The notes beneath the pieces were generated by a model. That model made no database searches, was not told where the DNA came from, and saw only the letters and a program-made list of their open reading frames with translations. Below are positions 1-17,568 of a stretch of DNA of 64,000 nt, one piece after another; positions within the stretch are counted from its first letter, which is position 1, and each line of letters starts with the position of its first letter. The translations under genes and the position numbers were made by a program. Origin of the DNA: Aulosira sp. ZfuVER01 (GTDB lineage: Bacteria > Cyanobacteriota > Cyanobacteriia > Cyanobacteriales > Nostocaceae); NCBI GenBank assembly GCA_034530615.2, contig JAVRCV020000043.1:1-64000 (forward strand). The letters are read 5' to 3'.

Positions 1-381
1 TCTGACAAAAATACTGTCCAGTCTCTTGAGGCTGTACTGCGATCGTAATAGTTCCAGTAATGTCGGAGTTCATGTCAGTCATATTAACCGCGCTGACAGA
101 TATTAAGAGGATATGCTTACGGTTAAATTCTAAGCGATCGCTACTGCATTTATTGAACGTTTACGATCAGATCAAGTTGTAATCAGAAATCTTGTTTGCC
201 TTTGGTCTAAGGTAGAAAATTCTACCACTAGCTAGATTGAGTTTATCTATCCGATGGTACATAATGCTGGCGGAAGCGTCATGCCCATTTCATCGTTGGT
301 GATGGCTCCAGCTAAAAAGACAGTAGTTCTGACTCAACCAATGGCGATCGCCTGGATTCGGGATATGTCAATGAGAACTTA

Positions 382-3300
382 ATGAAAGCTGATATTTCGG
401 AAAATATTTTTATTGGCGACAGTGAAATGGCAGTACTCATGCGATCGCTCGACTGGTCGCAAACGCCATTGGGGCCGATATCAGGATGGGCACAAAGCTT
501 AAAAACCTCTATCAGCATCCTCATGAGTTCTCGCTACCCCATGTTTGTTTGGTGGGGGCGTGAGTATGCCAACCTTTACAACGATGCTTATCGTCCGATG
601 ATGGGTGCTAAACATCCGCAATTTTTAGGACAATCTGCTAAAGAATGCTGGGCAGGCATTTGGGATGTAGTGGGGCCGCTTGCTGATAACGTTCTGTTGA
701 CAGGTCAACCCACCTGGTCTGAGAATTTGCTGTTGATTATGAATCGCAATGGCTATCCAGAGGAAGCCTACTTCACATTCTCCTATAACCCTGTGCGTGA
801 CGAAAGTGGTGGAGTGGGCGGCATCTTGTGTGGTGTTATTGAGACGACAAAACAGGTAATTGGAGAACGTCGGCTGCGAACTTTGCGAGAATTGAGTGCC
901 AGTACTGGAGCAGCCAAGACAGTGCAAGAAGCTTGCCATCTGGCTATGGCTACGCTGTCTGCCAATACTCACGATCTTCCCTTTGCCTTGTTATATCTAG
1001 TAGAACCAGATGGCAGCCAAGCGCGTTTAGTTAGTTCAACAACCAATATAGAATTAGGTGCGATCGCCAGTCCTCAGTTAGTGGATTTAAATGGTGCAAC
1101 CGACCTCTGGAATTTATCACGAGTGAATCACACCAGAGAAGTTGAGTTAATTGAAGACTTAACAGTGCGCTTTGGGGCGTTACCTGGCGGTGCTTGGCTG
1201 GAACCCTCCCATACGGCCTTGGTCATGCCACTTACCAAATCTGGACAAGTACAACGGTTAGCTGGATTATTAGTACTTGGCATTAGTCCGCGACACGCAT
1301 GGGATGATGAGTATCGAGGATTTTTCGATTTAGTTGCCAGCCTTGTGACTACAGCGATCGCCAATGCCGAGGCATACCAAGCAGAACGCAAACGCGCCGA
1401 AGCGTTAGCAGAATTAGACCGAGCCAAAACTCTGTTTTTCAGTAACGTCAGCCATGAGTTTCGCACTCCATTCAAGCAAACCATCGAAACTTTTTTATCG
1501 AGTATCAGTGATGGGTTTTATACGTTAGATCGCGACTGGCGCTTTACCTACGTCAATGATCGCTTATGTGAAATGGCTGGTAAGCAGCGCGAGGAATTGC
1601 TCGGTTACAACAATTGGGAGTTATTTCCTGATGCGGTGGGAACCAAGGTTTACGTTCAATTTCATCGCGCGCTGGCAGAACAAACACCTCTCCAGTTTGA
1701 GTATCTTTATGCACCCTGGAATCGCTGGTTTGAATACCGAGTTTATCCTTCACTGCATGGGCTGACAATTTTTGCGGTGGAAGTGACCGATCGCAAGCAA
1801 GCAGAAATGGTGCTGATGGAGCAAAAGCAACTGCTGGAGTTGATTGCACTGGGGCAACCCTTGGACGAATGCCTTTCAGCCCTCTGTGCCTCATTATCTC
1901 GGTTGAATCCTCGCATCCGTGCTTGTATTTTGCTGACTGATGCTCAGGGGTTAACGTTTCCCCGTTCCATCACCCCCGATTTTTTGCCATCCTTTGGGCA
2001 GGGACTCAAGGATGCGCCGATTAATGAATTGTGCATTGGCACCTGCGGTGAGGCGGTCTATTCCGGTCAGCCTGTTACTTGTGCAGACATTACCAATGAC
2101 GATCTCTGGTCGCGGGAATGGCGGGAGTTATGCATCGCTCATGGCATCCTAGCGTGTCATTCTGTACCCGTGCTGGGTGTGGATAATCAGCCTTTTGGCT
2201 CGCTGATGCTTTGCTTTGATGAAGCGCGGATGCCGACCGAATGGGAGTACCAACTCGCCAATTTTGGCACCCAGGTTGCCAGCATTGCCCTCGAACGCGA
2301 TCGCTCGAACACAGAAATTCAGACGCTGAACCATACCCTGAGCCACCGCGTTGATGAGTTACAAGCTTTGTTTGATGTGCTACCTGTGGGAGTAGCGATC
2401 GCCAAAGATCCAGAGTGCAGAATGGTTCGCTCCAATCCTTACCTTTCCAGAATCCTGCGGGTTGCGGTCGATGCCAACGCTTCCCAAAGCGCTCTTGCTG
2501 ACGAACGTCCTGCTTATCGCATTTTCAAGCAAGGACAGGAAGTACCCGTTGAAGAGTTGCCGATGCAGTATGCCGCTATCCATAACACTGAGGTAAGGGA
2601 CGAAGTGTTAGATATCGTCCATCCCGATGGCAGCATCATCAAACTACTATCCTATGCCGCCCCCTTACACGATGCTCAGGGCAAAGTTAGAGGCGTAATT
2701 GCCGGATTTGCTGACATTAGCGATCGCATCCGCACCGAAGCCGCCCTGCGCAAATCAGAAGAACAGTTCCGCTTATTCGTCACCGCTAGCTCAGACTTGG
2801 TGTATAAAATGAGCGCGGATTGGAGCGAGATGCATCACCTCGAAGGTAAAGATTTCCTTGCTAGCACAGAAAATTCCAGCCGCACATGGCTGGAAACCTA
2901 TATCCCCCAAGAAGATCGGCCGCAGGTGCTGGCTACGATCCAAGAAGCAATCCGTACTAAGAGTATTTTTGAGTTAGAACACCGAGTCATTAAATTGGAT
3001 GGCACGAGCGGCTGGACGTTCTCACGCGCGATTCCACTGCTGAACGAGCAGGGCGAAATTATTGAATGGTTTGGAACTGCCAGTGATGTGAGCGATCGCA
3101 AACAAGCCGAAGCCGAACGAGAGCAATTGTTACAAACCCTGGCAGAAGAACGTGCACGGTTTGAAGCTGTCTTGCGACAAATGCCTGAGGGAGTGATCGT
3201 TGCTGATGCTGCCTCCGGCAAAATGATTCTGGCAAATGAGCAAACGAACCAAATTCTGCGGTACGCTTTCGAGTTAAATATTGAGCTGGAAGAATATGAC

Positions 3301-5886
3301 CAGATAGTTCCTTTCCATGCTTACCATCCTGACGGCAGAATTTACACACCCGATGATTATCCTCTGGCGCGATCGCTTTCGACGGGTGAGATAGTTAACC
3401 ATGAAGAAATGGAAATTCGTTACCAGGACGGCAGTCAAATTTTGATTGAAGCCAGTTCCCTACCCATTTTTGACGAGCAGGGGCAGATTACCTCAGCTGT
3501 TGTCTTAATGCAGGATATTACTGAGCGCAAGCAGATTGAACAAGCTTTGCGTTCCAGTGAAACGCTGTATCGGACTTTGAGTGAAGTAGTCCCCGATTTT
3601 ATTTGGTCTTGTGATGAAAACGGTCAAGCTGATTTTGTCAACCCCCGATGGATAGAATATACCGGACTCACGCTGGAGGAACTGAATGCTGGAGGACTTG
3701 CTCAAGTTAACCATCCAGAGGACTTTCCCCGCTTAATGGAACAGTGGGAGATTGCTAAACAGAAAGGAGAATTGTTTGAAGCAGAGTTCCGATATCGGCG
3801 TAAAGATGGCGCATACCGTTGGTTTATGGGTCGGGCAGTTCCAATTAAAGATGACAATGGCAAAATTACTAGTTGGATTGGCACCTCTACTGACATCCAC
3901 GATCGCAAACAAGCAGAAATTGCGCTGCGGGAAAGCGAAGAACAGTTCCGTAGGCTTGCCAATGCCATGCCTCAGATTGTTTGGACAACTAACGCCAATG
4001 GAGAAGTCGATTATGTTAGCCAGCAGTGGTTTGACTATGCGGGACTGACATTAGAGCAAACCCAAGACCAAACGCAATATTTACAAGTCATCCATCCTGA
4101 TGATGTATCGCAGCTTTATGCGCAATGGTCAGCAGCGATTGAATCTGCTTCCCTGTATCAAACAGAAGTTCGTATTAAACGCGCAGCTGATGGAAAATAT
4201 CGCTGGTTCTTAACTCGTGCTGTACCTGTGAAAACTGAGGCGGGAGAGATTATTGCTTGGTATGGCACCTCGACTGACATCCACGATCGCAAACAAGCTG
4301 AGGTAGAACGAGAACAATTATTGGCAAGAGAGCAGTCAGCTAATGAAACGCTACGCAGGTTTATTGAACATACTCCCGTGGCAGTAGTCATGCTGGATCG
4401 CGAAATGCGCTATCTGTTTGCCAGTCAGCGTTGGATGCGTGAATATGCTTCAGGTTACACCGATCTCAAAGGTTTATCACATTACGAGGTCATGAGTGAT
4501 ACTCCCGAACGCTGGCGACAGATTCACCAACGATGTCTGGCGGGAGCAACTGAGCGCTGTGAAGAAGATTATTATCTACGTTATGATGGTTCAGCTCAGT
4601 GGTTGTATTGGGAAATACTTCCCTGGTATGCCAGTGCTGGTGAGATTGGTGGCATCATCATCTTTGCTGAGAACATTACTGAGCGCAAGCAAGCCGCGCA
4701 AGAGCGCCAGAATTTGTTAGAGCGCGAACAAGCTGCACGGGAACAAGCCGAAACTGCCAATCGCATTAAGGATGAATTTTTAGCGGTGTTGTCCCACGAA
4801 TTGCGATCGCCCATGAACCCGATTCTCGGTTGGGCAAAGCTTCTGCAAACTGGCAAGCTAGATGAAGCCAGAACCAAGCAAGCGATCGCCACGATTGAAC
4901 GCAACGCCAAGCTGCAATCTGAACTGATTGAAGACTTACTCGATGTCTCTCGAATTCTGCGAGGCAAGCTTAGTCTTACTGTCAGTCCCATTAATCTAGC
5001 ATTAACTATTCAAGCGGCGATCGAAACAGTGCGGCTAGCGGCAGAAGCCAAGTCAATTCAGATAGAAACAAGGCTAGATCCAGGATTAAGGATGGTTTTA
5101 GGCGACTCAACCCGCTTGCAGCAAGTAGTATGGAACCTGCTTTCCAATGCTGTGAAATTTACACCCCCTCAGGGAAGAGTCGAGGTGCAATTAGAACAGG
5201 TTGGCAATCAAGCTCAAATCACAGTCAGTGACACAGGAATTGGCATTACGCCGAAGTTTCTTCCCCATGTATTCGAGTATTTCCGTCAGGAAGATGGTGC
5301 AACCACCCGTAAATTTGGGGGATTGGGGCTGGGGTTAGCGATCGTACGACATTTGGTGGAACTACATGGGGGAACGGTAAAAGCGGAAAGTCGTGGTGAA
5401 GACTTAGGAGCCACTTTCACGGTGAGACTGCCCTTGATACTGACTCAGCCCAAAGTTAACATGGATCTGCAATTATCAGAACCATCCCTGGATTTGCAAG
5501 GCATTCAAGTCTTAGTCGTTGATGATGATACAGATACGCGGGACTTGGTTACTTTTGTCTTGCAACAAGTAGGGGCAAGGGTAATTGCCGTTTCTTCTGC
5601 TAGTGAAGCAATTACAGCTTTAACCCAATCTTGCTGCGATGTTTTACTCAGCGATATTGGTATGCCGGAGATGGATGGCTATATGCTCATGCGGCAGATC
5701 AAAGCATTGCCATCTTTACAAGGCGGGCAGATAAAAGCGATCGCTCTCACCGCCTATGCTGGGGATTTTAACCAACAACAAGCTTTGCAAGCAGGATTTC
5801 AAAGACACATAGCCAAACCTATCGAACCAGAACAATTAATAAAGGCCATTGTCCAGGTTCTAGCGCAATCATACACCAACCCATAA
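382..5886 (+). CDS. Multi-PAS/GAF hybrid sensor histidine kinase with C-terminal receiver domain
   Basis: 1834-aa ORF with several PAS/PAC modules (DI(H/T/S)(D/E)RK ends), GAF segments, H-box LSHELRSP, N-box NLLSNAVKFT, G2 box GGLGLGL and receiver VLVVDDD...SDIGMP...AKP. Confidence 0.95.
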   Translation: MKADISENIFIGDSEMAVLMRSLDWSQTPLGPISGWAQSLKTSISILMSSRYPMFVWWGREYANLYNDAYRPMMGAKHPQFLGQSAKECWAGIWDVVGPLADNVLLTGQPTWSENLLLIMNRNGYPEEAYFTFSYNPVRDESGGVGGILCGVIETTKQVIGERRLRTLRELSASTGAAKTVQEACHLAMATLSANTHDLPFALLYLVEPDGSQARLVSSTTNIELGAIASPQLVDLNGATDLWNLSRVNHTREVELIEDLTVRFGALPGGAWLEPSHTALVMPLTKSGQVQRLAGLLVLGISPRHAWDDEYRGFFDLVASLVTTAIANAEAYQAERKRAEALAELDRAKTLFFSNVSHEFRTPFKQTIETFLSSISDGFYTLDRDWRFTYVNDRLCEMAGKQREELLGYNNWELFPDAVGTKVYVQFHRALAEQTPLQFEYLYAPWNRWFEYRVYPSLHGLTIFAVEVTDRKQAEMVLMEQKQLLELIALGQPLDECLSALCASLSRLNPRIRACILLTDAQGLTFPRSITPDFLPSFGQGLKDAPINELCIGTCGEAVYSGQPVTCADITNDDLWSREWRELCIAHGILACHSVPVLGVDNQPFGSLMLCFDEARMPTEWEYQLANFGTQVASIALERDRSNTEIQTLNHTLSHRVDELQALFDVLPVGVAIAKDPECRMVRSNPYLSRILRVAVDANASQSALADERPAYRIFKQGQEVPVEELPMQYAAIHNTEVRDEVLDIVHPDGSIIKLLSYAAPLHDAQGKVRGVIAGFADISDRIRTEAALRKSEEQFRLFVTASSDLVYKMSADWSEMHHLEGKDFLASTENSSRTWLETYIPQEDRPQVLATIQEAIRTKSIFELEHRVIKLDGTSGWTFSRAIPLLNEQGEIIEWFGTASDVSDRKQAEAEREQLLQTLAEERARFEAVLRQMPEGVIVADAASGKMILANEQTNQILRYAFELNIELEEYDQIVPFHAYHPDGRIYTPDDYPLARSLSTGEIVNHEEMEIRYQDGSQILIEASSLPIFDEQGQITSAVVLMQDITERKQIEQALRSSETLYRTLSEVVPDFIWSCDENGQADFVNPRWIEYTGLTLEELNAGGLAQVNHPEDFPRLMEQWEIAKQKGELFEAEFRYRRKDGAYRWFMGRAVPIKDDNGKITSWIGTSTDIHDRKQAEIALRESEEQFRRLANAMPQIVWTTNANGEVDYVSQQWFDYAGLTLEQTQDQTQYLQVIHPDDVSQLYAQWSAAIESASLYQTEVRIKRAADGKYRWFLTRAVPVKTEAGEIIAWYGTSTDIHDRKQAEVEREQLLAREQSANETLRRFIEHTPVAVVMLDREMRYLFASQRWMREYASGYTDLKGLSHYEVMSDTPERWRQIHQRCLAGATERCEEDYYLRYDGSAQWLYWEILPWYASAGEIGGIIIFAENITERKQAAQERQNLLEREQAAREQAETANRIKDEFLAVLSHELRSPMNPILGWAKLLQTGKLDEARTKQAIATIERNAKLQSELIEDLLDVSRILRGKLSLTVSPINLALTIQAAIETVRLAAEAKSIQIETRLDPGLRMVLGDSTRLQQVVWNLLSNAVKFTPPQGRVEVQLEQVGNQAQITVSDTGIGITPKFLPHVFEYFRQEDGATTRKFGGLGLGLAIVRHLVELHGGTVKAESRGEDLGATFTVRLPLILTQPKVNMDLQLSEPSLDLQGIQVLVVDDDTDTRDLVTFVLQQVGARVIAVSSASEAITALTQSCCDVLLSDIGMPEMDGYMLMRQIKALPSLQGGQIKAIALTAYAGDFNQQQALQAGFQRHIAKPIEPEQLIKAIVQVLAQSYTNP

Positions 5887-5989
5887 GAGTAGCAGCAGAG
5901 GCGTTAGGCAAGATTGGCTATTTCCATAGAACCAGTAACGTCAGCTATTTTTTTACAAATTAAATTACTCACCTGTTAATCAATGATGA

Positions 5990-6139
5990 AAAAGTCCGCC
6001 CACAAGGGGTTGGAGTTTTTAGGCATTGGGAATGGGGCATGGGGAAGAAGCTACCAATGCCCTATGCCCTATGCCCCAAGCGGCGGGGCGGCTGTCCCTC
6101 TCCACCCACAAGAGGATGGAGAGGGACAGCCGCTTTCAA
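5990..6139. mobile_element. Possible non-autonomous IS200/IS605-type remnant (two related hairpins around heptamer repeats)
   Basis: Perfect 17-bp inverted repeat at 6088-6104/6117-6133. Its loop motif CCCACAAG.GG.TGGAG also occurs near 5998-6015. GGGCATT/ATGCCC repeats lie between the two, and the element ends in TTCAA. Confidence 0.35.
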
Positions 6140-6156
6140 TGAATTACTAAATATCA

Positions 6157-6573
6157 TCAATTATGAATGGGGCGATCGCCTACAATTTCATGCCAAACAT
6201 ATTGTTTCCAATTCACAGGGATTAAACCTTTCTTAACAAGGCTATTTCTCATACCATCATGCTTTTTATCAAGCCGAAGCGCATGACATACAGGGCAAAG
6301 AGTTCTTAAATTAGATGCATGATTGCTACCACCTGAAGATAAAGGACGAATATGGTCGATGTGAGCAACCCTAAGCTTTACTTCACCCATGCATAAGCCA
6401 TTGCTTTTTGGCGGTGTATTGGATGGACTTTGACAAAGACCGCGATCGCGCTTGTAAATACGCTGCCGTGTTCTCTCCCATTGCTCTGGTGGTTGTCGCC
6501 GCCACCAATACACTGGAAGGTTTGGATGCTGACGACGTTGCTTAATTTGCAGGTAAAGCTTAATTGATAACAT
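6157..6573 (-). CDS. HNH endonuclease
   Basis: Motifs RIYKRDRGLC and HIDHIRPLSSGGSNHASNLRTLCPVCH. Confidence 0.9.
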   Translation of the reverse strand: MLSIKLYLQIKQRRQHPNLPVYWWRRQPPEQWERTRQRIYKRDRGLCQSPSNTPPKSNGLCMGEVKLRVAHIDHIRPLSSGGSNHASNLRTLCPVCHALRLDKKHDGMRNSLVKKGLIPVNWKQYVWHEIVGDRPIHN

Positions 6574-6651
6574 GACGTGACAAAACCTGACTTAAGATAA
6601 CGTGACTCAACACAACTAGACGCTACTGGACTGAACACAACAGAAGGCGAC
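6567..6651 (-). repeat. 17 x 5-nt periodic array (GTY-NN); candidate guide RNA
   Basis: Minus strand reads GTCGC CTTCT GTTGT GTTCA GTCCA GTAGC GTCTA GTTGT GTTGA GTCAC GTTAT CTTAA GTCAG GTTTT GTCAC GTCAT GTTAT. 14/17 units start with GTY, and all 17 have T at position 2. Confidence 0.85.
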
Positions 6652-6656
6652 ATGTA

Positions 6657-6938
6657 TTAAACAATGGCAAAATTAGCCAGTTCAAAACGCCCATAACCAA
6701 TGCTTTGTCTACCATCACCAATACCGACTAAAGTGCCAGCATTGATAATAGCGGTCTCTAAGGACTTTCTATCAACCACGACTGAATCCCAAAGAATAGT
6801 AAATGAACAGTGCCATCCAGGTTTCACAGCAACGCGGTAACGGATATTCCTAGCTTTAGTTGATGGGTTACGCACGCCAATCACTTCAACGTAGCTATCA
6901 GGCAATTTCTCATTTTTGATAGTTCCTGCCTCGATCAC
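6657..6938 (-). CDS. RAMP/Cas7-like (Vipr-like) protein, C-terminal part, probably truncated
   Basis: Ends in glycine-rich loop AGTLVGIGDGRQSIGYGRF, preceded by RYRVAVKPGWHCSFTILW. Only 93 aa, with an in-frame stop at 6990-6992 upstream. Confidence 0.65.
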   Translation of the reverse strand: MIEAGTIKNEKLPDSYVEVIGVRNPSTKARNIRYRVAVKPGWHCSFTILWDSVVVDRKSLETAIINAGTLVGIGDGRQSIGYGRFELANFAIV

Positions 6939-7032
6939 TTGCGATAAAAATGATTGGGTGTCATACCTAGTTGACAGTGGCTGTAGAGGTCAATTACATT
7001 TTGCTCTCGTGCTTGTAAAGGGCGGGGATTAG

Positions 7033-7551
7033 TCATAGCACCTGCGACCCTTCCATTGGTTCTAAATCTTCTTCCCAAGCAATATCAGCCCTTGTCCAAG
7101 CGGCACTAGGGCTATCTTTGCTCAACCAAATCAAGTAGCACCAATTCCAGCGGCAAAGGTGGGGCGCAAAGCTGTAAAATCTGCCGATCACAGTTCCCCA
7201 ATCACTGTCAGCACCTAGCCAGCGCAGTTGATCGCCGTATAAAAAGCGCGGTGTCTTTGCTGTATCAGGAAAATCAATGGATAAGCCAACAGAATCTGGA
7301 GAAAATTTCTGATGGAGTAATGCTGCTAGCGAATACTGCTGGCTTTGAGCTATCGCACTCACATAATTAGCGAGCAGTTCAGAATTCAGGCTTTGGGCTA
7401 GTTGAGAAATCAGCACCGCCGCTAAGGTTTCTTGTTCTGGCTGCTCACAGTAATCGCTGAGTTTTGCCAATAGTTCAGTTATCGCGAAGTCATCTAAGGC
7501 TTGTAGATAACCTCTGTATTCATCTGTTTTATTGCCAACAGGCTTTAACAT
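7033..7551 (-). CDS. Hypothetical protein of the island
   Basis: 172-aa ORF with an RBS-like CAGGAG upstream and a Trp-rich, SH3-like C-terminus. Confidence 0.7.
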   Translation of the reverse strand: MLKPVGNKTDEYRGYLQALDDFAITELLAKLSDYCEQPEQETLAAVLISQLAQSLNSELLANYVSAIAQSQQYSLAALLHQKFSPDSVGLSIDFPDTAKTPRFLYGDQLRWLGADSDWGTVIGRFYSFAPHLCRWNWCYLIWLSKDSPSAAWTRADIAWEEDLEPMEGSQVL

Positions 7552-7723
7552 GGAATATGTCTCCTGTAGATAGGAGCCGAAAGCCAGCGTGTAACTTTCC
7601 TAGGGTCAACGCTGGCTTTTGACGTTATAAGTAATTATACGCAATTTTTGTGTTTTACAATGTGAATTTATGTGTTATAAGGCTTAAGGCATAAAAGTAC
7701 ATAAGAAAGCTTATGATAGTCAC

Positions 7724-7891
7724 ATGGGAAAAGTAACTGTAACTATTTACATGGAAGAACAAGACAAAGAAGCTCTACAACAGCTAGCGGATGCAGAAGA
7801 GCGCTCTTTGTCGCAAATGGCAGTGTTAATTCTGAAACGGGCAATTAAAAAAGCTCGCGAGGAGGGAACTATTCCCCCAACTCAGGGATAA
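7724..7891 (+). CDS. Ribbon-helix-helix (CopG/Arc-like) DNA-binding protein
   Basis: 55-aa ORF below the ORF-track cutoff: MGKVTVTIYMEEQDKEALQQLADAEERSLSQMAVLILKRAIKKAREEGTIPPTQG (alternating beta strand, helix, RSLS, helix). Confidence 0.85.
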   Translation: MGKVTVTIYMEEQDKEALQQLADAEERSLSQMAVLILKRAIKKAREEGTIPPTQG

Positions 7892-8550
7892 GGAAAATGA
7901 AGCTTAGGTAGATCAGGAGCAGTTTGCCGCTAGCGATCCTGTTGCCAGATGCTCCAGTAGCTAGCATACAAATACTATTGCGATCGCTGAGTTGAGTTGA
8001 CAGCAGTAACCTAATGCGGTGGCATCGCAGAACTGGCATAATTAGTCGATTGAGGGCAACTAATTATGAACCGAAGCCAGGTAGGTGAATTACAGGCTTA
8101 AATCGCTTGTTTATTGCTGCTTCTTAAACTAGTCTCTATCTCTTTGTGAGAGTCCTGCGATCGCTCCAGTAACCATAATTTTGCGGATCACTCGGATCAT
8201 TACATACGGATCATCTTCATCAACCAAAGAAATCCTGCCTTCAGATGGGCTGGCTTTTATCACAACGTGCTTAACCCGAACTTAGGTTCATTGACAAGCT
8301 TTACGAAGACTGATGTCAAGCTTGGCTTTAGCAATTATTTTCAATCCAAGAGTTGAGCAAAAAAACCAGCTTGCTTCAGACTAGGTCGATCACTAATGTA
8401 GCCAAGCAGCCACTAGCAATACATAATATGGCAGCGATCGCATGAAAGACATCCTCAGCAAATTTACAACACATCGCTTCCTCGGATTAGATAGTAGCGC
8501 TTAGAAATAACTATTATTAACTTCTAAAACTCATCCTAATTAGCGAATTA

Positions 8551-8820
8551 TTATGGCGCAATCGAGATTTCTATAAACTGTCCAGGAACTTGGCAACTAG
8601 ACTCAGAGTTACCCCTATCTCCATCTATCAAAATGTAAGCCTTATCTCCTACGATCGCTAATCCTTCAGATGAAGCAGAGAGGGATTGAACAATTTCAGG
8701 ACGAACTTTTGCATTTGGTTTTAAGTTCTTAATGGGTAATTTCCAAAGCACAAAGTTATTTTTTTCAGCTTCCGGCCCACCTGCAATACCCCAAATTAAG
8801 TTCCCGTTTTTAGTTATTTC
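8551..8820 (-). pseudogene. C-terminal fragment of a repeat/beta-propeller-like protein
   Basis: Open frame EITKNGNLIWGIAGGPEAEKNNFVLWKLP...SEGLAIVGDKAYILIDGD; short and lacking an obvious N-terminal part. Confidence 0.5.
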
Positions 8821-9298
8821 TCATGCAGAAGCTCATTGATAATGATGAAGACTAATGCCAAGCTTGGTTTTAGCCTTTTTTTCATACAGTAGTTGAGTAG
8901 CAAGATCGACTTACTTCAAAGTAATTTCACTCATCTGGTGAAACCGTCACTAGCAATATATAGTTTCGCAGCGATCGCCACTACCTAAGTTCAATCCACA
9001 AAAATAGCGTCGCTGACACCCAATTTTTCTAGTCTAGTTAGTAGAAATAGCAGCCATCAGGTAATGATAATTTTTACGGCAATATTTACAAGCGCGATTA
9101 CCGTAGATGTAAAAGGCCAATTGATGATATTCCTAGTAGAGATGAGTTCTGCTTATTTTTTGAACTAGCCTTATTCTTATGATCGAGTTTAATAATTATT
9201 GAAAAGTCAGGAAATTTTAATATTTAGTCAATTGGGTGTAATTTGGGTGTAAAAATTATTCTAACAAGCTGAAATCCTTGTAAATAAAGGATTTTAAT

Positions 9299-9343
9299 TA
9301 GCCTTCCAAGCTATTAATGCGGGTTCGATTCCCGCCGCCCGCT
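9299..9343 (+). mobile_element. Attachment site: 3' part of tRNA-Gly(TCC) marking the island boundary
   Basis: TAGCCTTCCAAGCTATTAATGCGGGTTCGATTCCCGCCGCCCGCT gives the anticodon arm, T arm and acceptor 3' strand. The D arm and 5' acceptor strand are absent upstream. Confidence 0.85.
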
Positions 9344-9351
9344 TACTAATC

Positions 9352-9390
9352 AAAACCTCTGAAAATTTTTAACTTTCTTTCAGGGGTTTT
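9352..9390 (+). terminator. Hairpin terminator following the tRNA 3' fragment
   Basis: AAAACCTCTGAAA...TTTCAGGGGTTTT imperfect inverted repeat. Confidence 0.5.
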
Positions 9391-9565
9391 TAACTTTTAA
9401 AGAGTCTTGATTGCATCAGCAGCCTTGGCTGACTCAAACAAACCGCTCACTGCGATCGCACCGCATCATTCATTACTGCCATGATTTAATCAGGCGATCG
9501 CAAACTTCCGCAAGCAATGCAGTCACAGGCAAAATAGATATAAGAGAATTGGACAAGGAAAAACT

Positions 9566-10120
9566 ATGACTACACTAGTCAAATCCATCACCTTAGAAGA
9601 ATTTCTACAACTCCCCGAAACCAAACCCGCATCCGAGTACATTGACGGAAAAATTAGCCAAAAACCCATGCCTCAAGGAGAACATAGCCTACTACAAATA
9701 GAACTGTGTGAAGCAATTAACCGGACAGCGAAACCTCAAAAAATTGCTCTTGCTTTGCCTGAAATCCGTTGTGTTTTTGCTGGTGCTGCTATAGTTCCTG
9801 ATATTGCGGTATTTCGTTGGGAACGCATTCCCCGTGAAGCATCAGGTACAATCGCCAACCGCTTTGAAACTTATCCCGACTGGGCTATAGAAATCCTCTC
9901 CCCAGACCAAAGCCAAGCCAAATTTCTCCGTAAATTACTGCACTGCTCCCAAAATGGCACAGAATTAGGATGGTTGATTTTTCCCGATGAAGCCAGCATT
10001 TTAACTATATTGCCAAATCAACGTGTTGAAATGCTCACAGGTACAGACTCACTTCCTATTCTCAACAACATTGATTTATCACTAACTGTTGAACAAGTTT
10101 TTAGCTGGCTAACCCTCTAA
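9566..10120 (+). CDS. Uma2 family (DUF820) endonuclease
   Basis: Motifs LEEFLQLPETKPASEY, IVPDIAV, PDWAIEILSP, GWLI. Confidence 0.92.
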   Translation: MTTLVKSITLEEFLQLPETKPASEYIDGKISQKPMPQGEHSLLQIELCEAINRTAKPQKIALALPEIRCVFAGAAIVPDIAVFRWERIPREASGTIANRFETYPDWAIEILSPDQSQAKFLRKLLHCSQNGTELGWLIFPDEASILTILPNQRVEMLTGTDSLPILNNIDLSLTVEQVFSWLTL

Positions 10121-10167
10121 CTCTACAGCTAAGACTAACCTATTAACCACAAAGACACAGAGAAAAA

Positions 10168-11496
10168 TTACAAACTAAACTCTGCTGCATTATTCTCATC
10201 TAAATTTGTATCTTTACCCGCAGCAGTAGGTTTAAATTTAGAGCCATGAATTAATTCAGCAAAAGCTATTTTTGGGTTTTGGTGGAGAATATTTAACACA
10301 CTAATAAAATCTCGCACAATTTCCCCTGGCGTTAGCAATGCTTCTGCACCCAAGCGATTGACAATTTCTTGCACAAATTCATTTAACTGTCGATTTGTCA
10401 AAGTTTTTTCATGACCATAATTTAGAGCATGAATTTCAGTGATACGTTGCAGAAGCGTAAGAATTTCTTCTTGGCTCAAGGGATTTAATCTAATTACCGG
10501 GCCTGAATATTCTTGAACACCAGCTTGGGTAACAAAGCGGCTTTCTTTGGTACGTCTGCGCCAAGCTTGGTCTGCAAATAATCCTCGATTTGGGTCTTCT
10601 AAAAACTTTGTGGTACCACCAATCAAAATACCCAAATGTTCGGCTTTACACTGCATGGTGTCGTTAAACATTGCTAGCAGTCTATTATAATTTTTTTCTC
10701 GTGTAACAGTAGTTGATATTTGATATAAATGTACTGATTCATCAACTAAAATTAACAGCCCTTTATAGCCAATTTCTGCAACAAATTTTGCCCATAGCTT
10801 GATGTAGTCATACCAACTATCATCATCAATAATGACACGCACTCCTAAAGCAGCTTTTGCTTCAATTTTTGTTGTGAATTCTCCTCGCAACCAACGCATA
10901 GCAGCATTTTTTAAGCCATCATCATCCAATCTATAACTACGCCAATAAGCGATAATGATGGTGCCAAAATCAAATCCGTGAACTAAATCTTCAATATACT
11001 GAACAACTTCCCTAATTTTTGCTTCAACTTGGTCATCAAAACCTTCATCGTTAGGTTTTAGTCCAGCTTCTTTTGCTACTTCTTGTTGGATTTTATTAAT
11101 CCATCCTTCCAAAATTGAAACTAAAGCACCGCCATCAGGACGAGTTTTTGTAGCTAGGCGACTCATCAATTCTCGATAGGTTGCTAAACCTTCGTTGTTA
11201 CTTCCTGCTAGGCGGCGTTCTGAGGATAAATCAGCATCAGCTACTACAAAACCTTGTTCCATCGCACGGCTACGAATCAGTTGCAGTATGAAGCTTTTAC
11301 CGGAACCGTAGTTGCCAATTACAAAACGAAATGCCGATACACCTTCTGCAATATCATCGAGATTCTGTAACAGGCTTTTTAGTTCTTGTTCTCGACCTAC
11401 TGCTATATGTTCAACTCCCATCCTTGGTACTACTCCTGCACCAAGGGAATTAATTAAAGCAGTGGTTATTTTTTTCGAGATTTTGGGTTTTGCCAT
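10168..11496 (-). CDS. DUF2791/BrxD-like P-loop ATPase
   Basis: N-terminal GVVP.G...IAVGR, Walker A GNYGSGKS, Walker B LLILVDE. Confidence 0.85.
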   Translation of the reverse strand: MAKPKISKKITTALINSLGAGVVPRMGVEHIAVGREQELKSLLQNLDDIAEGVSAFRFVIGNYGSGKSFILQLIRSRAMEQGFVVADADLSSERRLAGSNNEGLATYRELMSRLATKTRPDGGALVSILEGWINKIQQEVAKEAGLKPNDEGFDDQVEAKIREVVQYIEDLVHGFDFGTIIIAYWRSYRLDDDGLKNAAMRWLRGEFTTKIEAKAALGVRVIIDDDSWYDYIKLWAKFVAEIGYKGLLILVDESVHLYQISTTVTREKNYNRLLAMFNDTMQCKAEHLGILIGGTTKFLEDPNRGLFADQAWRRRTKESRFVTQAGVQEYSGPVIRLNPLSQEEILTLLQRITEIHALNYGHEKTLTNRQLNEFVQEIVNRLGAEALLTPGEIVRDFISVLNILHQNPKIAFAELIHGSKFKPTAAGKDTNLDENNAAEFSL

Positions 11497-11752
11497 GTAG
11501 TTGATCTCACCTGATTTTGAACGCAGAGGCTTATAGCCAGCAAGTTAAGTCAGGTATATGTTATACCTATTAAGTAATTTTACAACGGCATGAATAATTT
11601 AATTAACTATAGCCATCTTATGTGATTTGTGAGAATTAACGTTTTAACAAACCTCCTACTCCTGCGGAGAATCAAGCTACGCACAGCGTCTCGCAGAGAA
11701 GAAAGCAGAGGACGCCAAGGAAAGAGAAAATTAGCTGAATCATTTAGGGTTG

Positions 11753-13072
11753 TTATGAAGAATGTTGATAGATAGCTATGATTTTTTTGACGTTAGTTAT
11801 ATGCTCGTGATATATTTCTGGATTTTCTACTCTCGGATCAATTATTAGTTCACCTAAAGTATCATCTGCCTTATCATTAATTGAATCAATTAGTAGATTA
11901 GGCATAGTAATATTTGCTTCTGCAATCTGTTTAATGGTATCTCGAGAATTTTCTTGCTCTAAGATAGCTTTTAATACTTGAATTTCATAATCTGGTAGCT
12001 GCTGCAAAAAGATGTTCCATTCTTCTGGTAAAATATCAGACGTATCAGGTTCTATATCTATTATTTCTATGGGTTGTATTAATTCTTCAAAAGGGAAAAT
12101 TTCTTGAATATCTTCCTCTGATTTTTCTGATAAAATTTCTGGATTTATTGTTTCTATTTGTTGAAGTAAATCCCGAACTTGGCTTTGTAACAAGTCGCGT
12201 TCTTCTTGCAATAATGAAACTTGCTCTTGTAAATGCTGCAATTCTGCTTGCTGTTCTACTGTTTTGGTTTGTAAATAATTCAGACTAGATTCTATATTTT
12301 CTCTATTACTTGTTGTATTAATCAGTAATTGGTTTTTCTGATTAACCTCAACTTCTAAATCTTGCAGTTGAATTCGCAGTTCGTATAGTTTTTCTTCTAC
12401 TTGAGGTTTAAGTCTACCTAGCAGAGTTAAATTACTTTCTAGCTCTTGCTTTTCTTGCTGAAGTTCGCAGATTTGATTCTGTAGCTGATTAATTTCGGAG
12501 CGAGAGACATTACAATTCAATTCAAGACGGCGTTTTTCTGATGTAAGAACTGAAAAAGAAGTATTCAGTTCGGTTTTATTTTTATCTAGGCTATGAACTT
12601 CTACTTTTAGAACACTAATTTCAGTTTCTAATTGTTTTTTTTGGCTAGCAAAAGTGCTGAGTTCTCTATGCAGACTATCTCTTTGATTGCGACATTCTGC
12701 TACTTTATTTTGGAGTTGTTTAGATTCTGCGTATAATGAACTACGATGTTCTTCAATTTGATTAATTTCTCGAACGATTCGTGACTTCAATTCTTCAAGT
12801 TCTTTAATTCGTTTCCGCAAAGAATTTAAGACAAGCATTTCATGATTTTTACGCCGTTTATCTACACAAAATGCTGCTGCATAGGTAGCGAATAAAGTAA
12901 TGATGCCTGTGACAAAGGCTTTAGTATAATCCCAGTTAGGGACAAGACTAAGACCAAAACTTACACTAAAGGCAACTATTCCTAGAAACAATCGATTACT
13001 TACTGTTGCTGAGTGCATATTACTTATTTTTAGCCTAGTCAACTTGTCAATATCAGTAGTTTTTAAGGACAT
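11753..13072 (-). CDS. Membrane-anchored coiled-coil protein with TerB C-terminal domain (alternative start 13018)
   Basis: Two N-terminal hydrophobic helices, a long heptad coiled coil, and C-terminal MPNLLIDSINDKADDTLGELIID. Confidence 0.75.
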   Translation of the reverse strand: MSLKTTDIDKLTRLKISNMHSATVSNRLFLGIVAFSVSFGLSLVPNWDYTKAFVTGIITLFATYAAAFCVDKRRKNHEMLVLNSLRKRIKELEELKSRIVREINQIEEHRSSLYAESKQLQNKVAECRNQRDSLHRELSTFASQKKQLETEISVLKVEVHSLDKNKTELNTSFSVLTSEKRRLELNCNVSRSEINQLQNQICELQQEKQELESNLTLLGRLKPQVEEKLYELRIQLQDLEVEVNQKNQLLINTTSNRENIESSLNYLQTKTVEQQAELQHLQEQVSLLQEERDLLQSQVRDLLQQIETINPEILSEKSEEDIQEIFPFEELIQPIEIIDIEPDTSDILPEEWNIFLQQLPDYEIQVLKAILEQENSRDTIKQIAEANITMPNLLIDSINDKADDTLGELIIDPRVENPEIYHEHITNVKKIIAIYQHSS

Positions 13073-13185
13073 TAATCCTCACTTTTTTTCGCAGAAATCT
13101 GCGGTGGTAAATATTTGTCAATAGCATTTTTTGTAAATCACCAAAGATTGAAATTCCCAACTAATGAATTGCTCTACTCTTATTA

Positions 13186-14541
13186 TTATGTATTATTTTT
13201 GATACTCAAAAGTGACAAATCGGCTTTCAAGAAATCAACAAACTGACGTGCTGTGCGTCCTGAACGACCATTATGGCGAGTAGCCCATTGTAATGATTGA
13301 TACTCTAGATCTTCTTGGCTAATATTAATTCCTGCCTGTGCTGCTAAATGCCGGACAATTTCTAAATAAGTTTTCTGATCTGCCCCCTCGAAGGTCAAGG
13401 TTAGTCCAAAGCGATCGCTAAAAGAAAGCTTCTCCTGCATCGTATCCCATACATGAATTTCTTCTTGATCCTTGGGAGCAGGCCTGTCTGTATAAAACTC
13501 TCGAATCAAGTGGCGGCGATTGGAAGTTGCATACACAACTACGTTTTTCGGTCGTGCGGTTAAATTACCTTCTAAAACTACTTTCAGTGCTTTAAAAGCA
13601 TCGTCATCTTCTTCAAAGGAAAGGTCATCAACAAAGATAATAAATTTCTGTGGAACTCCTCGCAATTGTTCCACAATTGTTGGTAAGTCTTGTAATTCAG
13701 ATTTTGTCACTTCTACTAAACGGAGGTTACGCTGACTATACTCATTCAACAAAGCTTTGACTAAAGACGATTTTCCAGAACCGCGACTACCATAAAGTAA
13801 TACGTGTAGTGCAGCCTCACCCGCTAACAAAAACTCTGTATTTTGTAACAAAGCGTCCCTTTGTGACTCATAACCTGCTAGTACATCGAGTTTGACAGGA
13901 TCGGGATGCTGAATGCCCACAAACTTGCCAGCTTGCCAGCGCAAAGCGCGATATTCGGCAAATAACCCTGTGCCAAATTGCCGATAATAAGCGGCTAAAT
14001 CTTCTACAGTATCAGCCCAGTTATCTGAATTATGGAGAGAGGTAATTGCCTTAGCCTGTAGGTGCGTTTCTACTTCTGTCTTATCTTGTTCTGTGTACCA
14101 TACAATCGGTGAAACAGGCAGATGGGCTACAGTTTGTACCCATTCGCTCAAAAAAGCGCTGCTACACTCATATAAACTTTGCAACAGGTGTAAATCATGC
14201 TGCGCTGCTGCGACTAATGCAATGGGCAGATTTTCAAATTCTTGCTTTTGAGCCAGTTGGGTAAATGGATTCTCCGCAATCAGAATTTGATTAATTAAGT
14301 AGTCTTCCCAATTTTGATTTTGAGCAGCTAAGGCGTGAAAGTAACTGCCATAAGCTTGGAGACAACCCCGCGCATCGGCATCAGTGTAGCGTATAGCTTG
14401 CAACAGTTCCAGAAATGCTATCCCCACTTCGCTTTGGAGGACGGATTGGTAAAGTAAGAGTGATGCTGCTTGGCGCTGGAGGAACTGGATTTTGGCATAG
14501 GATGAAGTGCTTCCCGTAGACATCGCTTGATTATCCGTCAA
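13186..14541 (-). CDS. DUF815 family AAA+ ATPase
   Basis: Motifs GSRGSGKSS, FVDDLSFE, YATSNRRHL, SDRFGL, RSGRTARQF. Confidence 0.9.
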   Translation of the reverse strand: MTDNQAMSTGSTSSYAKIQFLQRQAASLLLYQSVLQSEVGIAFLELLQAIRYTDADARGCLQAYGSYFHALAAQNQNWEDYLINQILIAENPFTQLAQKQEFENLPIALVAAAQHDLHLLQSLYECSSAFLSEWVQTVAHLPVSPIVWYTEQDKTEVETHLQAKAITSLHNSDNWADTVEDLAAYYRQFGTGLFAEYRALRWQAGKFVGIQHPDPVKLDVLAGYESQRDALLQNTEFLLAGEAALHVLLYGSRGSGKSSLVKALLNEYSQRNLRLVEVTKSELQDLPTIVEQLRGVPQKFIIFVDDLSFEEDDDAFKALKVVLEGNLTARPKNVVVYATSNRRHLIREFYTDRPAPKDQEEIHVWDTMQEKLSFSDRFGLTLTFEGADQKTYLEIVRHLAAQAGINISQEDLEYQSLQWATRHNGRSGRTARQFVDFLKADLSLLSIKNNT

Positions 14542-14625
14542 TCAATTGGGTGATGAATTGCAACAGCTATGGTAAATTGTCTGCCGACCTTTGCGGCAAA
14601 GTCAAAATCTACATAGGTTTTAACA

Positions 14626-14946
14626 ATGGAAATAAGTATAATTGCCGCTCTTGTCTATGGCATTTTGGCGTTGATTGGTGGCATTATGGGCTACATTCAG
14701 GCTAATAGTAAAGTTTCGCTACTAAGTGGTGTTATTAGCGGTTTATTACTAATTTTTGCCTCTTTTCTGCAATTACAAGGTCAAGCCTGGGGTTTGTTGG
14801 TAGCAGCTTTGGTTACTGCTGTTTTAGTGGTTTTCTTTTGCTTGCGGTTAGCAAAAACACGTAAGTTTATGCCTTCAGGATTAATGGCTATTGTGGGTAT
14901 GGTGGCATTAGTGCTGATGTTAAATCAAATTGTTGCTGTCAATTAG
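14626..14946 (+). CDS. TMEM14 family small membrane protein
   Basis: GGIMGY...S.VSL.SG and KFMP.G motifs; hydrophobic throughout. Confidence 0.85.
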   Translation: MEISIIAALVYGILALIGGIMGYIQANSKVSLLSGVISGLLLIFASFLQLQGQAWGLLVAALVTAVLVVFFCLRLAKTRKFMPSGLMAIVGMVALVLMLNQIVAVN

Positions 14947-15565
14947 GGCGAAGTTTGATTGGCTTATACGTGTCTAAGCAACGTCTGCGACAGGTTAAGA
15001 CCGTGATTTGTCATTTGTCCTTTGTCAATACAAATGACAAATGACTTGACGGTGCTGTAATTTTGAGATCAATAATTCCCCCTGTTCTTAGTAATTATAT
15101 ATAGTACATTTATATTACTGTAAAGTTGCACTTGTAAGTTTAAAAGCACTACGTTCTTCGACAAAGTAGTACTAAGTTTGTGGGAATATACAGAATGGGA
15201 GGACTATTTGCCTCTAGACAAAATTTGGTGCTAATCCTATGTAGGCGATCGCCTGGGAATCATAAGCCTAACCGAATCCTGGCATTTTCTGCCGGGAAAT
15301 GGCAGCAATCTCTATTGCATAAGGCTGCTAGTGAAGTCTATCGCCCTGAGGAATTAGTAAAGAATTGATAATTATGAATCACTAATACTAAGGACATAAA
15401 TTATTTATACCTTTAGTATTCCTGAGTTATAAAAAAAACAGGCAAAATGCTTGTTTTTATTAGCTTGCGGTTAAAAAATTCTGAATTGAACTTGGCTTCA
15501 ACGTCGATGCAGAAAATCGTCTCGTTCGATACAATTTATAGGCTAAGAGAGCCGAGGAGAACAAA

Positions 15566-16705
15566 GTGAGCTTATCAAAAGGCTTTGAGATTGAGATGTA
15601 TACGGGCACACCTCAAGGTGAAATCGTTGGTCTCTCGGACAAAATTGTTGAGGCTTTAGATGGATTTGTGCGGGAGCCAGATAGCCGCAACGTAGAATAC
15701 ATAACTAAGCCATTACATAGTTATGAGCAGTTATTGTGTGCCCTGCTGCGTCCTCGCCATGAACTGCGAAAATATCTTAAACAATTGGGCGATTATACCT
15801 TAATTCCAGGCAGTACCTTGTCTTTGGGTGGGAGCGATCGCTTCTTGCGTTCCGATCCAACTAACCCTTACCACGACTACATTGAGCAAACCTATGGCAC
15901 AAAAGTAGTCACAGCTAGCGTACATATCAATATAGGTATTAGCGATCCAGAACTATTGATGCGGGCGTGTCGGGTAATTCGAGCAGAAGCACCTTTATTC
16001 CTTGCTCTGAGCGCTTCATCACCATTTTTAGAAGGTAAAGCCACTGGCTATCACTCTACTCGGTGGGGACTATTTCCTCATACGCCAGCCCATGTACCTT
16101 TATTTGCCAGTCACGCCCACCACATTGAATGGGTGGAACAACAGCTGGCTGCTGGCACAATGCAAAATGTCCGGCATTTGTGGGCATCAGTCCGCCCAAA
16201 TGGCGATCGCCGTCCCTATGACTTAAATCGCTTAGAACTGCGAATTTGCGATTTAGTTACAGATCCGATCGCCTTACTCGCAATTACTGCCTTGCTAGAA
16301 GCCCGTTTGTTGCAGGTAATCGAAAATCCTGAAATCGATCCGTTAACTCAAAGTAGCTTCACTCCAGAAGAACTCATCAGCTTAACTGCTAGCAACGAGG
16401 CTGCTGCTGCAACTGCGAGTCTGGATGCTTCGCTGCAACACTGGCAAGATGGCAGAACCATTGTCGCCAGAGATTGGATAGATCAAATGTACCAAGAAGT
16501 TTGGGCGATCGCTAAACAACAAGGGTTTAGTTGTTTCCTTTCTCCTTTGCACAAAATTCTCCGCGAAGGGAATGAAGCCAAACAGTGGTTACAACTGCAC
16601 GCAGTCGGGTTTGATTCTGGGCGAGTCATCTCCCAAGCAATTGTTGCTAGCCAAGAACGAGAAATCGAATTAGAGGATAAATTGTGTTCCCCCTCAATGG
16701 CGTAA
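15566..16705 (+). CDS. gshA: Glutamate--cysteine ligase (cyanobacterial type)
   Basis: Motifs KGFEIE, EPDSRNVEY, ASVHINIG, NRLELRICD. Confidence 0.9.
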   Translation: MSLSKGFEIEMYTGTPQGEIVGLSDKIVEALDGFVREPDSRNVEYITKPLHSYEQLLCALLRPRHELRKYLKQLGDYTLIPGSTLSLGGSDRFLRSDPTNPYHDYIEQTYGTKVVTASVHINIGISDPELLMRACRVIRAEAPLFLALSASSPFLEGKATGYHSTRWGLFPHTPAHVPLFASHAHHIEWVEQQLAAGTMQNVRHLWASVRPNGDRRPYDLNRLELRICDLVTDPIALLAITALLEARLLQVIENPEIDPLTQSSFTPEELISLTASNEAAAATASLDASLQHWQDGRTIVARDWIDQMYQEVWAIAKQQGFSCFLSPLHKILREGNEAKQWLQLHAVGFDSGRVISQAIVASQEREIELEDKLCSPSMA

Positions 16706-17106
16706 CACTACACCCCCCGTCTTCCTAACAAATGGTAGATTTTTTTGAGAGGCAGAGAAAAATTTGTATGGGGCATGGGGTATGGGGTATGGGTTATTGT
16801 TTCTTCCCCTCTTCCCTTGTCTCATTTCTCCCCAGACTCCCTTGTCCCCTTGCCTTCAATCTTTCCTGCCCCCTAATCCGCTACTTTTGGCTCTAGCGGT
16901 TCAAAGACAAAAATTTAAAAATTTGTGGTCTAAGCCAAAAATACTCTCAGATACTTCCTTGAGGGTTAATTTTCTATGTTTTAAAAATCTAATCTATTAG
17001 GAAGAGCTTGATAATTATTAACAAAACCTATAGATTAGTACCTAACCCTTGGTAGAATGTGCCGAGTCGATACATTGTTTTTTACACTACATTCTTGCCA
17101 GTAACA

Positions 17107-17568
17107 ATGCCGCAGGTAGTTTTAGTTAACCCTCAAATTCCCCCGAATACAGGCAATATTGCACGTACTTGTGCTGCTACGGGTACAGAATTACATTTAG
17201 TCGGGCCTTTAGGGTTTGAAATTAGCGATCGCTACCTTAAAAGAGCTGGTTTAGATTACTGGCCTTATGTCAAGCTCAACTATCATGAATCTGTAGAAGC
17301 CTTTAAAAACATTCATCAGGAACGTGGTGGTAGATTGTTGGGTTTCAGTGTTAGGGGCAGTTGTAACTATGCCCAATTTAATTTTCAAGCAGATGACTGG
17401 CTGCTGTTTGGTAGCGAAACGACTGGCTTACCGCCAACAGTTCTATCAGCTTGTGATGCCACACTATATATTCCTATGGCTCAACCAAAAGTTCGCAGCT
17501 TGAATCTTTCTGTGAGTGTCGCAGTCGGCTTGTTTGAAGCCCGGCGTCAATTAGGTTATTTACTATAA
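17107..17568 (+). CDS. trmL: tRNA (cytidine(34)-2'-O)-methyltransferase
   Basis: SpoU motifs PQIPPNTGNIARTC, KRAGLDYW, FGSETTGL, RSLNLS. Confidence 0.93.
   Translation: MPQVVLVNPQIPPNTGNIARTCAATGTELHLVGPLGFEISDRYLKRAGLDYWPYVKLNYHESVEAFKNIHQERGGRLLGFSVRGSCNYAQFNFQADDWLLFGSETTGLPPTVLSACDATLYIPMAQPKVRSLNLSVSVAVGLFEARRQLGYLL

Follow-up and report, generated by a model that had tools for sequence, protein, structure and literature searches.

A decayed HNH-carrying locus in Aulosira most likely represents a VIPR variant with GTY guides and putative targets in CL131-like cyanophages

In the window, by which we mean the whole 64,000-nucleotide stretch of Aulosira sp. ZfuVER01 DNA analyzed here, we have in all probability identified the pseudogenised relic of an HNH-carrying (probably type III) VIPR system that belongs to a cyanobacterial clade with GTY guides and whose anti-phage guide is directed against virion genes of CL131-like phages. 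VIPR is a CRISPR-related RNA-guided defence that was first described in 2026 (10.64898/2026.04.26.720920). The relevant features of the window are the following.

6157..6573, minus strand: HNH accessory gene (vap), intact, 138 aa; PF01844 with E 1.8e-9; DH...N...H residues present
6567..6651, minus strand: vrRNA-type guide of 17 GTY/NN pentamers, assigned by sequence and target decoding
6657..6938, minus strand: vipr remnant (RAMP/Cas7-like), corresponding to residues 114-206 of the 206-aa full-length Vipr; thumb and G-loop kept, N-terminal half gone
6936..6942, minus strand: deletion junction, 7-nt microhomology GCAAGTG
6935..7036, minus strand: 5' stub of an island gene of 102 aa, out of frame with the vipr remnant to which it is now fused
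7033..7551, minus strand: 172-aa island gene, found upstream of vipr in several relatives too
7724..7891, plus strand: CopG-like ribbon-helix-helix island regulator (PF07878 with E 4.3e-8)
9299..9345, plus strand: att site, 47 nt that repeat the 3' part of tRNA-Gly(UCC), 100% identical to C58:11850-11896

Architecture of the locus

A first-pass annotation of this DNA had described an ORF, an array of 17 pentamers and an HNH gene as three minus-strand elements that follow each other without gaps, and all three co-oriented elements are indeed packed together at the positions given above. The 93-aa ORF ends in a glycine-rich loop (AGTLVGIGDGRQSIGYGRF) and is separated by 5 nt from the array, which is 85 nt in length. 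Its pentamers follow GTY-NN exactly in 14 of 17 cases and have T at position 2 in all 17, and the ATG of the HNH gene spans the last two of them. Searched for as at least 8 of 12 GTY units with a period of 5, the array is the sole such site on both strands of the 8.03-Mb genome, and the binomial genome-wide expectation for an array of this kind is 1.4e-12.

About 13 to 14 units of the window guide would specify the target, with the last three or so forming what appears to be a constant cap. These last units are conserved as GTCAT followed by GTTT, GTTA, GTCT or GTCA in 27 of 31 GTY arrays. In type II VIPR, such as that of SUSP1, the 3' tail is structured and invariant; window 6660-6520 gave no fold signal for such a tail (z -0.55). 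Note that in the Nostocales loci (window 6573-6567; L002-L014) the HNH start codon is located inside the conserved last guide units, so that excision of the guide would take the HNH start with it. In three further loci, L015, L074 and L078, the HNH start is separate from the guide.

The absence of a CRISPR repeat-spacer array, also noted at first pass, holds for the ranges covered: no direct repeats of CRISPR type were found in window 1-20000, and Rfam families matched only one tRNA over the 64 kb, with no real match in the region 5800-9600. The module itself contains no Cas5 or further cas partner gene and no repeat-spacer array. Promoter and terminator scans of the locus gave scores at or below shuffle level, and the 172-aa island gene at 7033..7551 showed no Pfam match above cut-off and no PHROG match.

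The Vipr protein family

The ORF of the window is identical in 91 of 93 residues to positions 114-206 of the full-length relative P0002, and its nearest relatives are 206 aa long. Named proteins with 97-98% identity point to a heterocyst-forming cyanobacterium as the host. A Pfam search with the 93-aa fragment alone gave no match. Relatives were sought among proteins of 164-2000 residues, and 146 of 189 candidates passed an E of 0.001. From an alignment of 103 of 120 proteins among the matches listed we built a profile, A1, whose sole match to PDB sequences at E<=10 is SUSP1 Vipr (E 1.2e-9); 26 of the 103 A1 members matched Pfam RAMPs at E<=0.1. In an AF2 model of full-length P0002 (pLDDT 90.7) the best fold matches are Cmr/Csm3 subunits, both with VIA (Z 9.8, rmsd 4.1, 159 aligned residues) and with Foldseek (E 1e-8), and Vipr itself is absent from the match lists of both searches. 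PADLOC yielded no match for P0002 at 1e-10. As judged from the profile match to SUSP1 Vipr, the Pfam RAMPs and the predicted fold taken together, the full-length family therefore is Vipr, with a Cas7/RAMP fold in the model. The RAMP/Cas7-like nature of the ORF, as first proposed, is thereby borne out, and the fold comparison that the first-pass annotation had suggested, carried out on P0002, points to a RAMP fold of the Cmr/Csm3 type.

Conservation of the module and the GTY clade

Related loci were assembled from collection scans of 66, 44 and 80 (of 258) loci with the addition of L001-L005, and the profile matched in 194 of these 195. We considered 146 of the 194 as testable, as their C-terminus is intact and 1000 nt or more of downstream sequence are available, with duplicates between collections counted. 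An HNH gene is present within 1.2 kb downstream in 142 of the 146, an array in 135, and array and HNH together in 132, so that full-length relatives, whose collection had been recommended, do carry the periodic array with the nuclease gene, and the predicted co-conservation of the HNH is confirmed by its linkage. The DH...N...H residues are invariant or at least 90% conserved among 93 aligned HNH proteins of these loci. In its intact form in relatives the module consists of a 206-aa vipr, one array of 15-19 units and the HNH gene.

Counted by distinct full-length protein with a called array (n=145), the scaffold is GGY in 119 cases, GTY in 18 and mixed in 8. The 18 GTY proteins make up one side of a branch with an SH-aLRT of 96 among cyanobacterial GGY loci, as obtained from a quick tree with a midpoint root. 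By this sequence comparison the guide scaffold of one cyanobacterial clade has changed from GGY/NN to GTY/NN (GUY in RNA). The variant GTY scaffold of the initial description is thus upheld, with T at position 2 in every unit of the window array and GTY limited to a single clade. Across 31 GTY arrays positions 1-3 are fixed and positions 4-5 variable, a composition that is descriptive, as the labels were set by position 2.

In all 18 GTY proteins the G-loop is longer by one residue (P0002 position 191), and in none of the 127 others is this residue found. Among 24 further loci the insertion is present in 4, all of them GTY and mostly repeats of loci already counted, and absent in 18, of which 14 are GGY and 4 have no called array, with the loop not readable in the remaining 2. 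In the profile alignment it is located two residues past the equivalent of SUSP1 W178, adjoining R179. Because about 30 other alignment columns vary together with the insertion, which arose only once, it is considered a candidate scaffold-switch residue and not an established cause. Locus L109 shows 72% T at position 2 without the insertion.

L109 is one of several divergent Vipr loci (L109, L110, L097/L113, L161) with relaxed GNY arrays, where position 2 is T, A or G, and without the G-loop insertion; these possibly represent an independent drift towards GTY. The viral loci L109-L111 carry arrays but no HNH. Multi-guide GTY arrays occur in the phage contigs L073, L074 and L078, and phage-borne GTY systems (L074 5630-6265, L078 5634-6005, L120 1249-1690, L073) have 3-6 guides each, ending in GTCAT GTTT and, with the exception of L073, joined by linkers that end in GGCTRTAC, a possible processing or promoter signal. 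In L072 a T-rich GTY array (4898-4978) is found about 100 nt upstream of vipr, with an HNH gene directly downstream, on a contig with a Mu-type portal. L097/L113 have a second array cluster at +2906..+3500 from the vipr stop, and L097 a second HNH about 3 kb downstream. Five vipr matches were obtained in genome G639.

Guide targets in CL131-like phages

According to the decoding rule for VIPR, the NN pairs are joined with one wildcard base between them (10.64898/2026.04.26.720920). A search with an 11-unit 1-skip pattern of the window guide, allowing for at most 2 mismatches, yielded a match in 2 of 389 family genomes and none with the reversed control. With about 0.7 chance matches expected by hand estimate, the 389-genome search is weak on its own, and the case rests on guides that are out of sample. 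Both genome matches fall into the same major capsid gene (phrog_264 with E 6e-58, PF09950), as do 2 of 7 exact matches of the pattern in IMG/VR; one IMG/VR phage, whose capsid protein is identical to that of G252, was counted as the same phage. The matches in the capsid gene are located on identical codons (LVQQAYTETMNK), and the open unit of the pattern is AC in 3 of the 4 phage sequences, as in most intact relatives. The target capsid protein shares 64% identity with its counterpart in Aphanizomenon phage CL131, and the target contig also carries terminase, portal and head protease genes.

We further scored all distinct GTY or mixed guides, 43 in number, against phage regions totalling 164,202 nt, dropping the last three units as constant. 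At skip 1, 13 of the 14 guides of the Nostocales clade beat all 20 shuffles (9-13 units); skips of 0, 2 and 3 remained at background (6-9 units), and of the other 29 GTY or mixed guides none matched the 164,202 nt. The window guide reached 11 of 14 units at best, with the skipped base at the wobble position. A guide family comprising L004, L007, L009, L010 and L011 addresses the antisense strand of the same capsid gene some 65 codons upstream, and the L010 guide matches 13 consecutive units there in G280. The L118 guide was lengthened from 9 units to 13 once a first match had been obtained, and 13 of its 13 units find a match within the G252:C29 terminase gene. Neither family was used in finding the phages, and the chance probability of the L010 and L118 matches is about 7e-11 each. 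At all three target sites the skipped base is codon position 3.

As evidenced by the perfect L010 and L118 matches and by the failure of other skips and of shuffles, the GTY arrays are, in silico and for the Nostocales branch, real guides that use the standard 1-skip code; the first description of a guide-like array with variable NN positions is thereby substantiated through its decoded natural targets. The restriction to this branch follows from the 29 other guides and from four phage-borne GTY guides in IMG/VR that gave no convincing target (1, 30, 5 and 8 matches, at best 11/18, 12/19, 9/17 and 10/14 units, all at chance level). A 7.5-unit scan with the second guide family returned 72 matches, mostly by chance, one of them the known capsid site.

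Guide alleles have a phage counterpart in 3 of 5 cases at unit 1, 2 of 2 at unit 2, 2 of 3 at unit 8, 2 of 2 at unit 11, 1 of 3 at unit 12, 1 of 2 at unit 13 and 2 of 5 at unit 14. Several guide alleles thus often appear to track phage alleles (units 1, 2, 8, 11 and 14), an observation that bears on guide acquisition without Cas1. For units 8 and 13 of the window guide no matching phage allele was seen, and isolated CL131 is diverged at the target site of the window guide. The host genome contains neither a self target (9 of 14 units; shuffles 8-10) nor a close capsid homolog. Such a homolog is present in 3 of the 389 genomes, and the target phages sit in genomes of genera other than that of the window. 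No vipr was found in three phage-bearing genomes, a number too small to carry weight. A comparison of CRISPR spacers of the host with the phage regions was dominated by short tandem repeats. CL131-like phages of about 100-120 kb were seen in Nostocaceae assemblies (L205-L212 (G252:C29), L206, L217), and they carry DarB-like antirestriction, methyltransferase and sigma-factor genes.

Relation to known VIPR systems

We assign the window locus to VIPR, most likely to type III; its scaffold is a new variant, and its natural targets are well supported. In the family a stand-alone RAMP is combined with one accessory gene, without a CRISPR array or other cas genes. The guide consists of pentamers with three fixed and two variable bases, where VIPR guides have about 9-16 units and the window array has 17, and for the Nostocales branch the targets, in silico, show one skipped base at the wobble position, on either strand, and no self target. 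The legend of fig. S21 in the discovery preprint lists HNH among types II, III and VII, and its text has types III-V as enzyme types (10.64898/2026.04.26.720920); legend and main text together suggest that the HNH most likely marks type III. Features of type III that are present in the family are the HNH accessory, the location in defence islands and, in silico, viral targets. Like the nuclease-bearing types III and V of that preprint, the loci described here have a stand-alone RAMP of about 200 aa, a pentamer guide with an HNH accessory, a defence-island setting, viral targets read with a 1-nt skip, and a single guide per locus.

Unlike types III and V as printed, the scaffold is GTY/NN and the GTY clade has the one-residue G-loop insertion. 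The scaffolds listed in the preprint text are YNNGG and, as alternatives, NNNGG, YNNNG and NNNNG, and in no case is the second fixed position a T (10.64898/2026.04.26.720920). The canonical GGY core is thus absent from the window array, whose core is GTY, but as the same preprint allows for 'a related consensus' and 119 of 145 family members are GGY, this marks a variant and does not exclude the locus from VIPR. The searched text of the VIPR preprints contains neither GTY nor cyanobacterial targets nor a G-loop correlate. The figures, tables S1-S3 and data S1-S4 of the discovery preprint may list the clade or show a GTY logo; its main and supplement text, figures, tables and data files aside, names no cyanobacterial locus or target. 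The searched text of a further preprint does not mention HNH, GTY, GUY or cyanobacteria (10.64898/2026.10.15.759431).

SUSP1 type II VIPR (PDB 36pp; 10.64898/2026.04.26.720927) has a homologous protein and the same skip code. In the alignment its D177 and R179 correspond to D188 and R190 of P0002, and its thumb residue R138 to R148. In the SUSP1 protein W178 stacks on G2, and W178 and R179 hold G2 and Y3 (10.64898/2026.04.26.720927). Throughout the family of the window, however, the W178 equivalent is a glycine, and the GTY clade alone has its extra residue two positions further on. In addition, SUSP1 VIPR stems from an Escherichia phage and acts in silencing, whereas here the accessory is a nuclease and the system is host-encoded. 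A change of GGY to GAY abolished silencing by SUSP1, and GGY to GUY is not among the mutants listed in the preprint text (10.64898/2026.04.26.720920).

In the COMPASS study 21 clusters next to Vipr-like folds are described whose cores differ from GGY (10.64898/2026.10.21.760802), and scaffold variation as such is therefore already in print. Its named cores are GAC/NN, CAC/NN, WGT/NN and TGH/NN; GTY is not named there, and as GAC is the reverse complement of GTC, the GTY family may be included in its fig. S10. The searched text of that study gives neither targets nor protein correlates for the non-GGY arrays (10.64898/2026.10.21.760802). HNH-carrying VIPR types and non-canonical repeat cores are thus already known from the 2026 preprints, as far as their text goes. 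HRAMP (PMC8730458) likewise combines a RAMP with a nuclease, but it is haloarchaeal and array-less, has two RAMPs (Cas5 and Cas7), and is described there without a pentamer guide.

Proposed mechanism and alternative explanations

In the intact form the guide array would be transcribed and each pentamer bound by one Vipr subunit, with the fixed trinucleotide buried as in the SUSP1 structures. The NN pairs would then read double-stranded DNA with one base skipped per unit, in line with the natural targets, and by analogy to SUSP1 an R-loop triplex may form at the target. In silico, the guides are directed at conserved virion genes of the CL131-like phages of filamentous cyanobacteria, namely those for the major capsid protein and the terminase. 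Residing on mobile or defence islands, the system would protect the host against phages, and the sequence data thus put a name to a putative defence of filamentous cyanobacteria against CL131-like phages.

The co-encoded HNH protein probably cuts the Vipr-bound DNA, as its conserved residues and a suggestion in the discovery preprint would indicate. A competing but clearly less probable explanation retains the same guide and targets and has transcription silenced only, with the HNH acting in guide processing or abortive infection and not as the target cutter. Repression is, in the texts at hand, the only activity demonstrated for VIPR, the three viral loci L109-L111 do without the HNH, and as its start is located within the 3' end of the guide in Nostocales, guide maturation and HNH translation may compete. 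Silencing alone, however, sits poorly with catalytic residues that are invariant or nearly so in the 93 aligned proteins, with the linkage of the HNH in 142 of 146 loci and with targets located mid-gene on either strand, and the preprint text infers target destruction for the nuclease-bearing types III and V (10.64898/2026.04.26.720920). For the question of DNA cutting by nuclease VIPR, complete sets of intact vipr, guide, HNH and natural phage target are now at hand, and cutting of the bound DNA remains our preferred reading.

The gapped code of VIPR survives the change of an invariant scaffold base, and the single candidate residue for the scaffold switch offers a direct route to orthogonal pairs of Vipr and guide. 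A more far-reaching, speculative proposal sees in the GTY clade an orthogonal VIPR that was re-coded in nature, in which the one-residue G-loop insertion would switch the base read from G to U and GUY guides would load on their own protein only. With the 128-aa HNH this would constitute a two-gene, PAM-free RNA-guided DNA nuclease, and the single chromosomal guide, point-rewritten to track cyanophage capsid alleles, would amount to a Cas1-free adaptive immunity in Nostocales. We consider this extended proposal doubtful as a whole.

In the genome of the window a microhomology-bounded deletion would have removed half of vipr. Compared to L002 and G003, some 890-900 bp between two copies of GCAAGTG are missing, among them vipr codons 1-~112 and the region upstream of the gene. 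With the 5' half of the gene taken by this deletion of about 0.9 kb, the window copy is very probably dead and a relic, and since no second vipr was found in the genome, guide and HNH are, by this comparison, left as orphans. The decayed state suspected at first pass is therefore explained, the short RAMP being a deletion remnant (residues 114-206 of 206). Truncated vipr copies arose independently elsewhere in Nostocales genomes (L005, L017 and L237), decay of vipr is thus recurrent, and L005 retains array and HNH beside the truncated gene as the window does.

That the window copy is still active, either through a 93-aa fragment started at an internal GTG that binds the guide, or through Vipr supplied in trans from a plasmid or phage, seems improbable to us. 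The reading frame of the fragment is open and shares 98% identity with intact relatives, array and HNH are both intact, and a GTY VIPR does occur on a Nostoc plasmid. Nevertheless, the lost half contains, by motif and not by full alignment, the equivalents of the G1-binding histidine, helix-1 and the alpha-bundle that are needed in SUSP1 Vipr (10.64898/2026.04.26.720927), the upstream region of vipr is gone, and both the missing second vipr and the independently truncated copies speak against residual function. Three DNA runs of one root-metagenome study, which may include the source of the window, gave contigs that cover the region and break at 6932, beside the junction, and among the matches listed from these three runs no piece bridges the deletion junction. 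The three runs show two island alleles at similar depth in window 5900-9500, and in two of them all differences between the window and a 415-nt piece that covers the array lie outside the array.

Filamentous cyanobacterial genomes are rich in short tandem repeats and the first target search was expected to give about 0.7 hits by chance (a hand estimate), but that the array is such a repeat with coincidental phage matches is hardly credible, as it is unique in the genome, keeps positions 1-3 fixed and 4-5 variable over 31 GTY arrays, and belongs to a set of three guides that match two virion genes of one phage group at skip 1 and in wobble phase only, two of them out of sample with 13 of 13 units. 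Just as remote is a CRISPR Cas7/Csm3 protein or an array-less module such as HRAMP, which unites Cas5, Cas7 and nucleases (PMC8730458), unrelated to the pentamers: the fold matches are indeed Csm3/Cmr subunits, but the RAMP is single with no Cas5 partner seen beside it, Vipr is the closest solved sequence, P0002 has no PADLOC match at 1e-10, and pentamer arrays accompany it in 135 of 146 loci.

Island and defence context

The first-pass annotation had placed the module on a tRNA-Gly island. The island holds, in that the att site bounds it here and in G003, but the window contains no intact tRNA-Gly, only the 47-nt 3' copy; the intact tRNA-Gly(UCC) is located near the end of contig C58. At the same att-bounded site G003 carries an intact VIPR module, with a DruE-like helicase and a type III-B Cmr module as neighbours, the latter about 12 kb away and outside the module. 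Intact copies elsewhere adjoin restriction-modification systems, integrases, replication genes and a DruE-like helicase. On the island side of the att site, window 382-5886 encodes an 1834-aa PAS/GAF hybrid histidine kinase, at a place that defence genes occupy in G003, and a 150-nt imperfect inverted repeat (72%) at window 8288-8441 and 8833-8978 flanks short gene remnants in the island.
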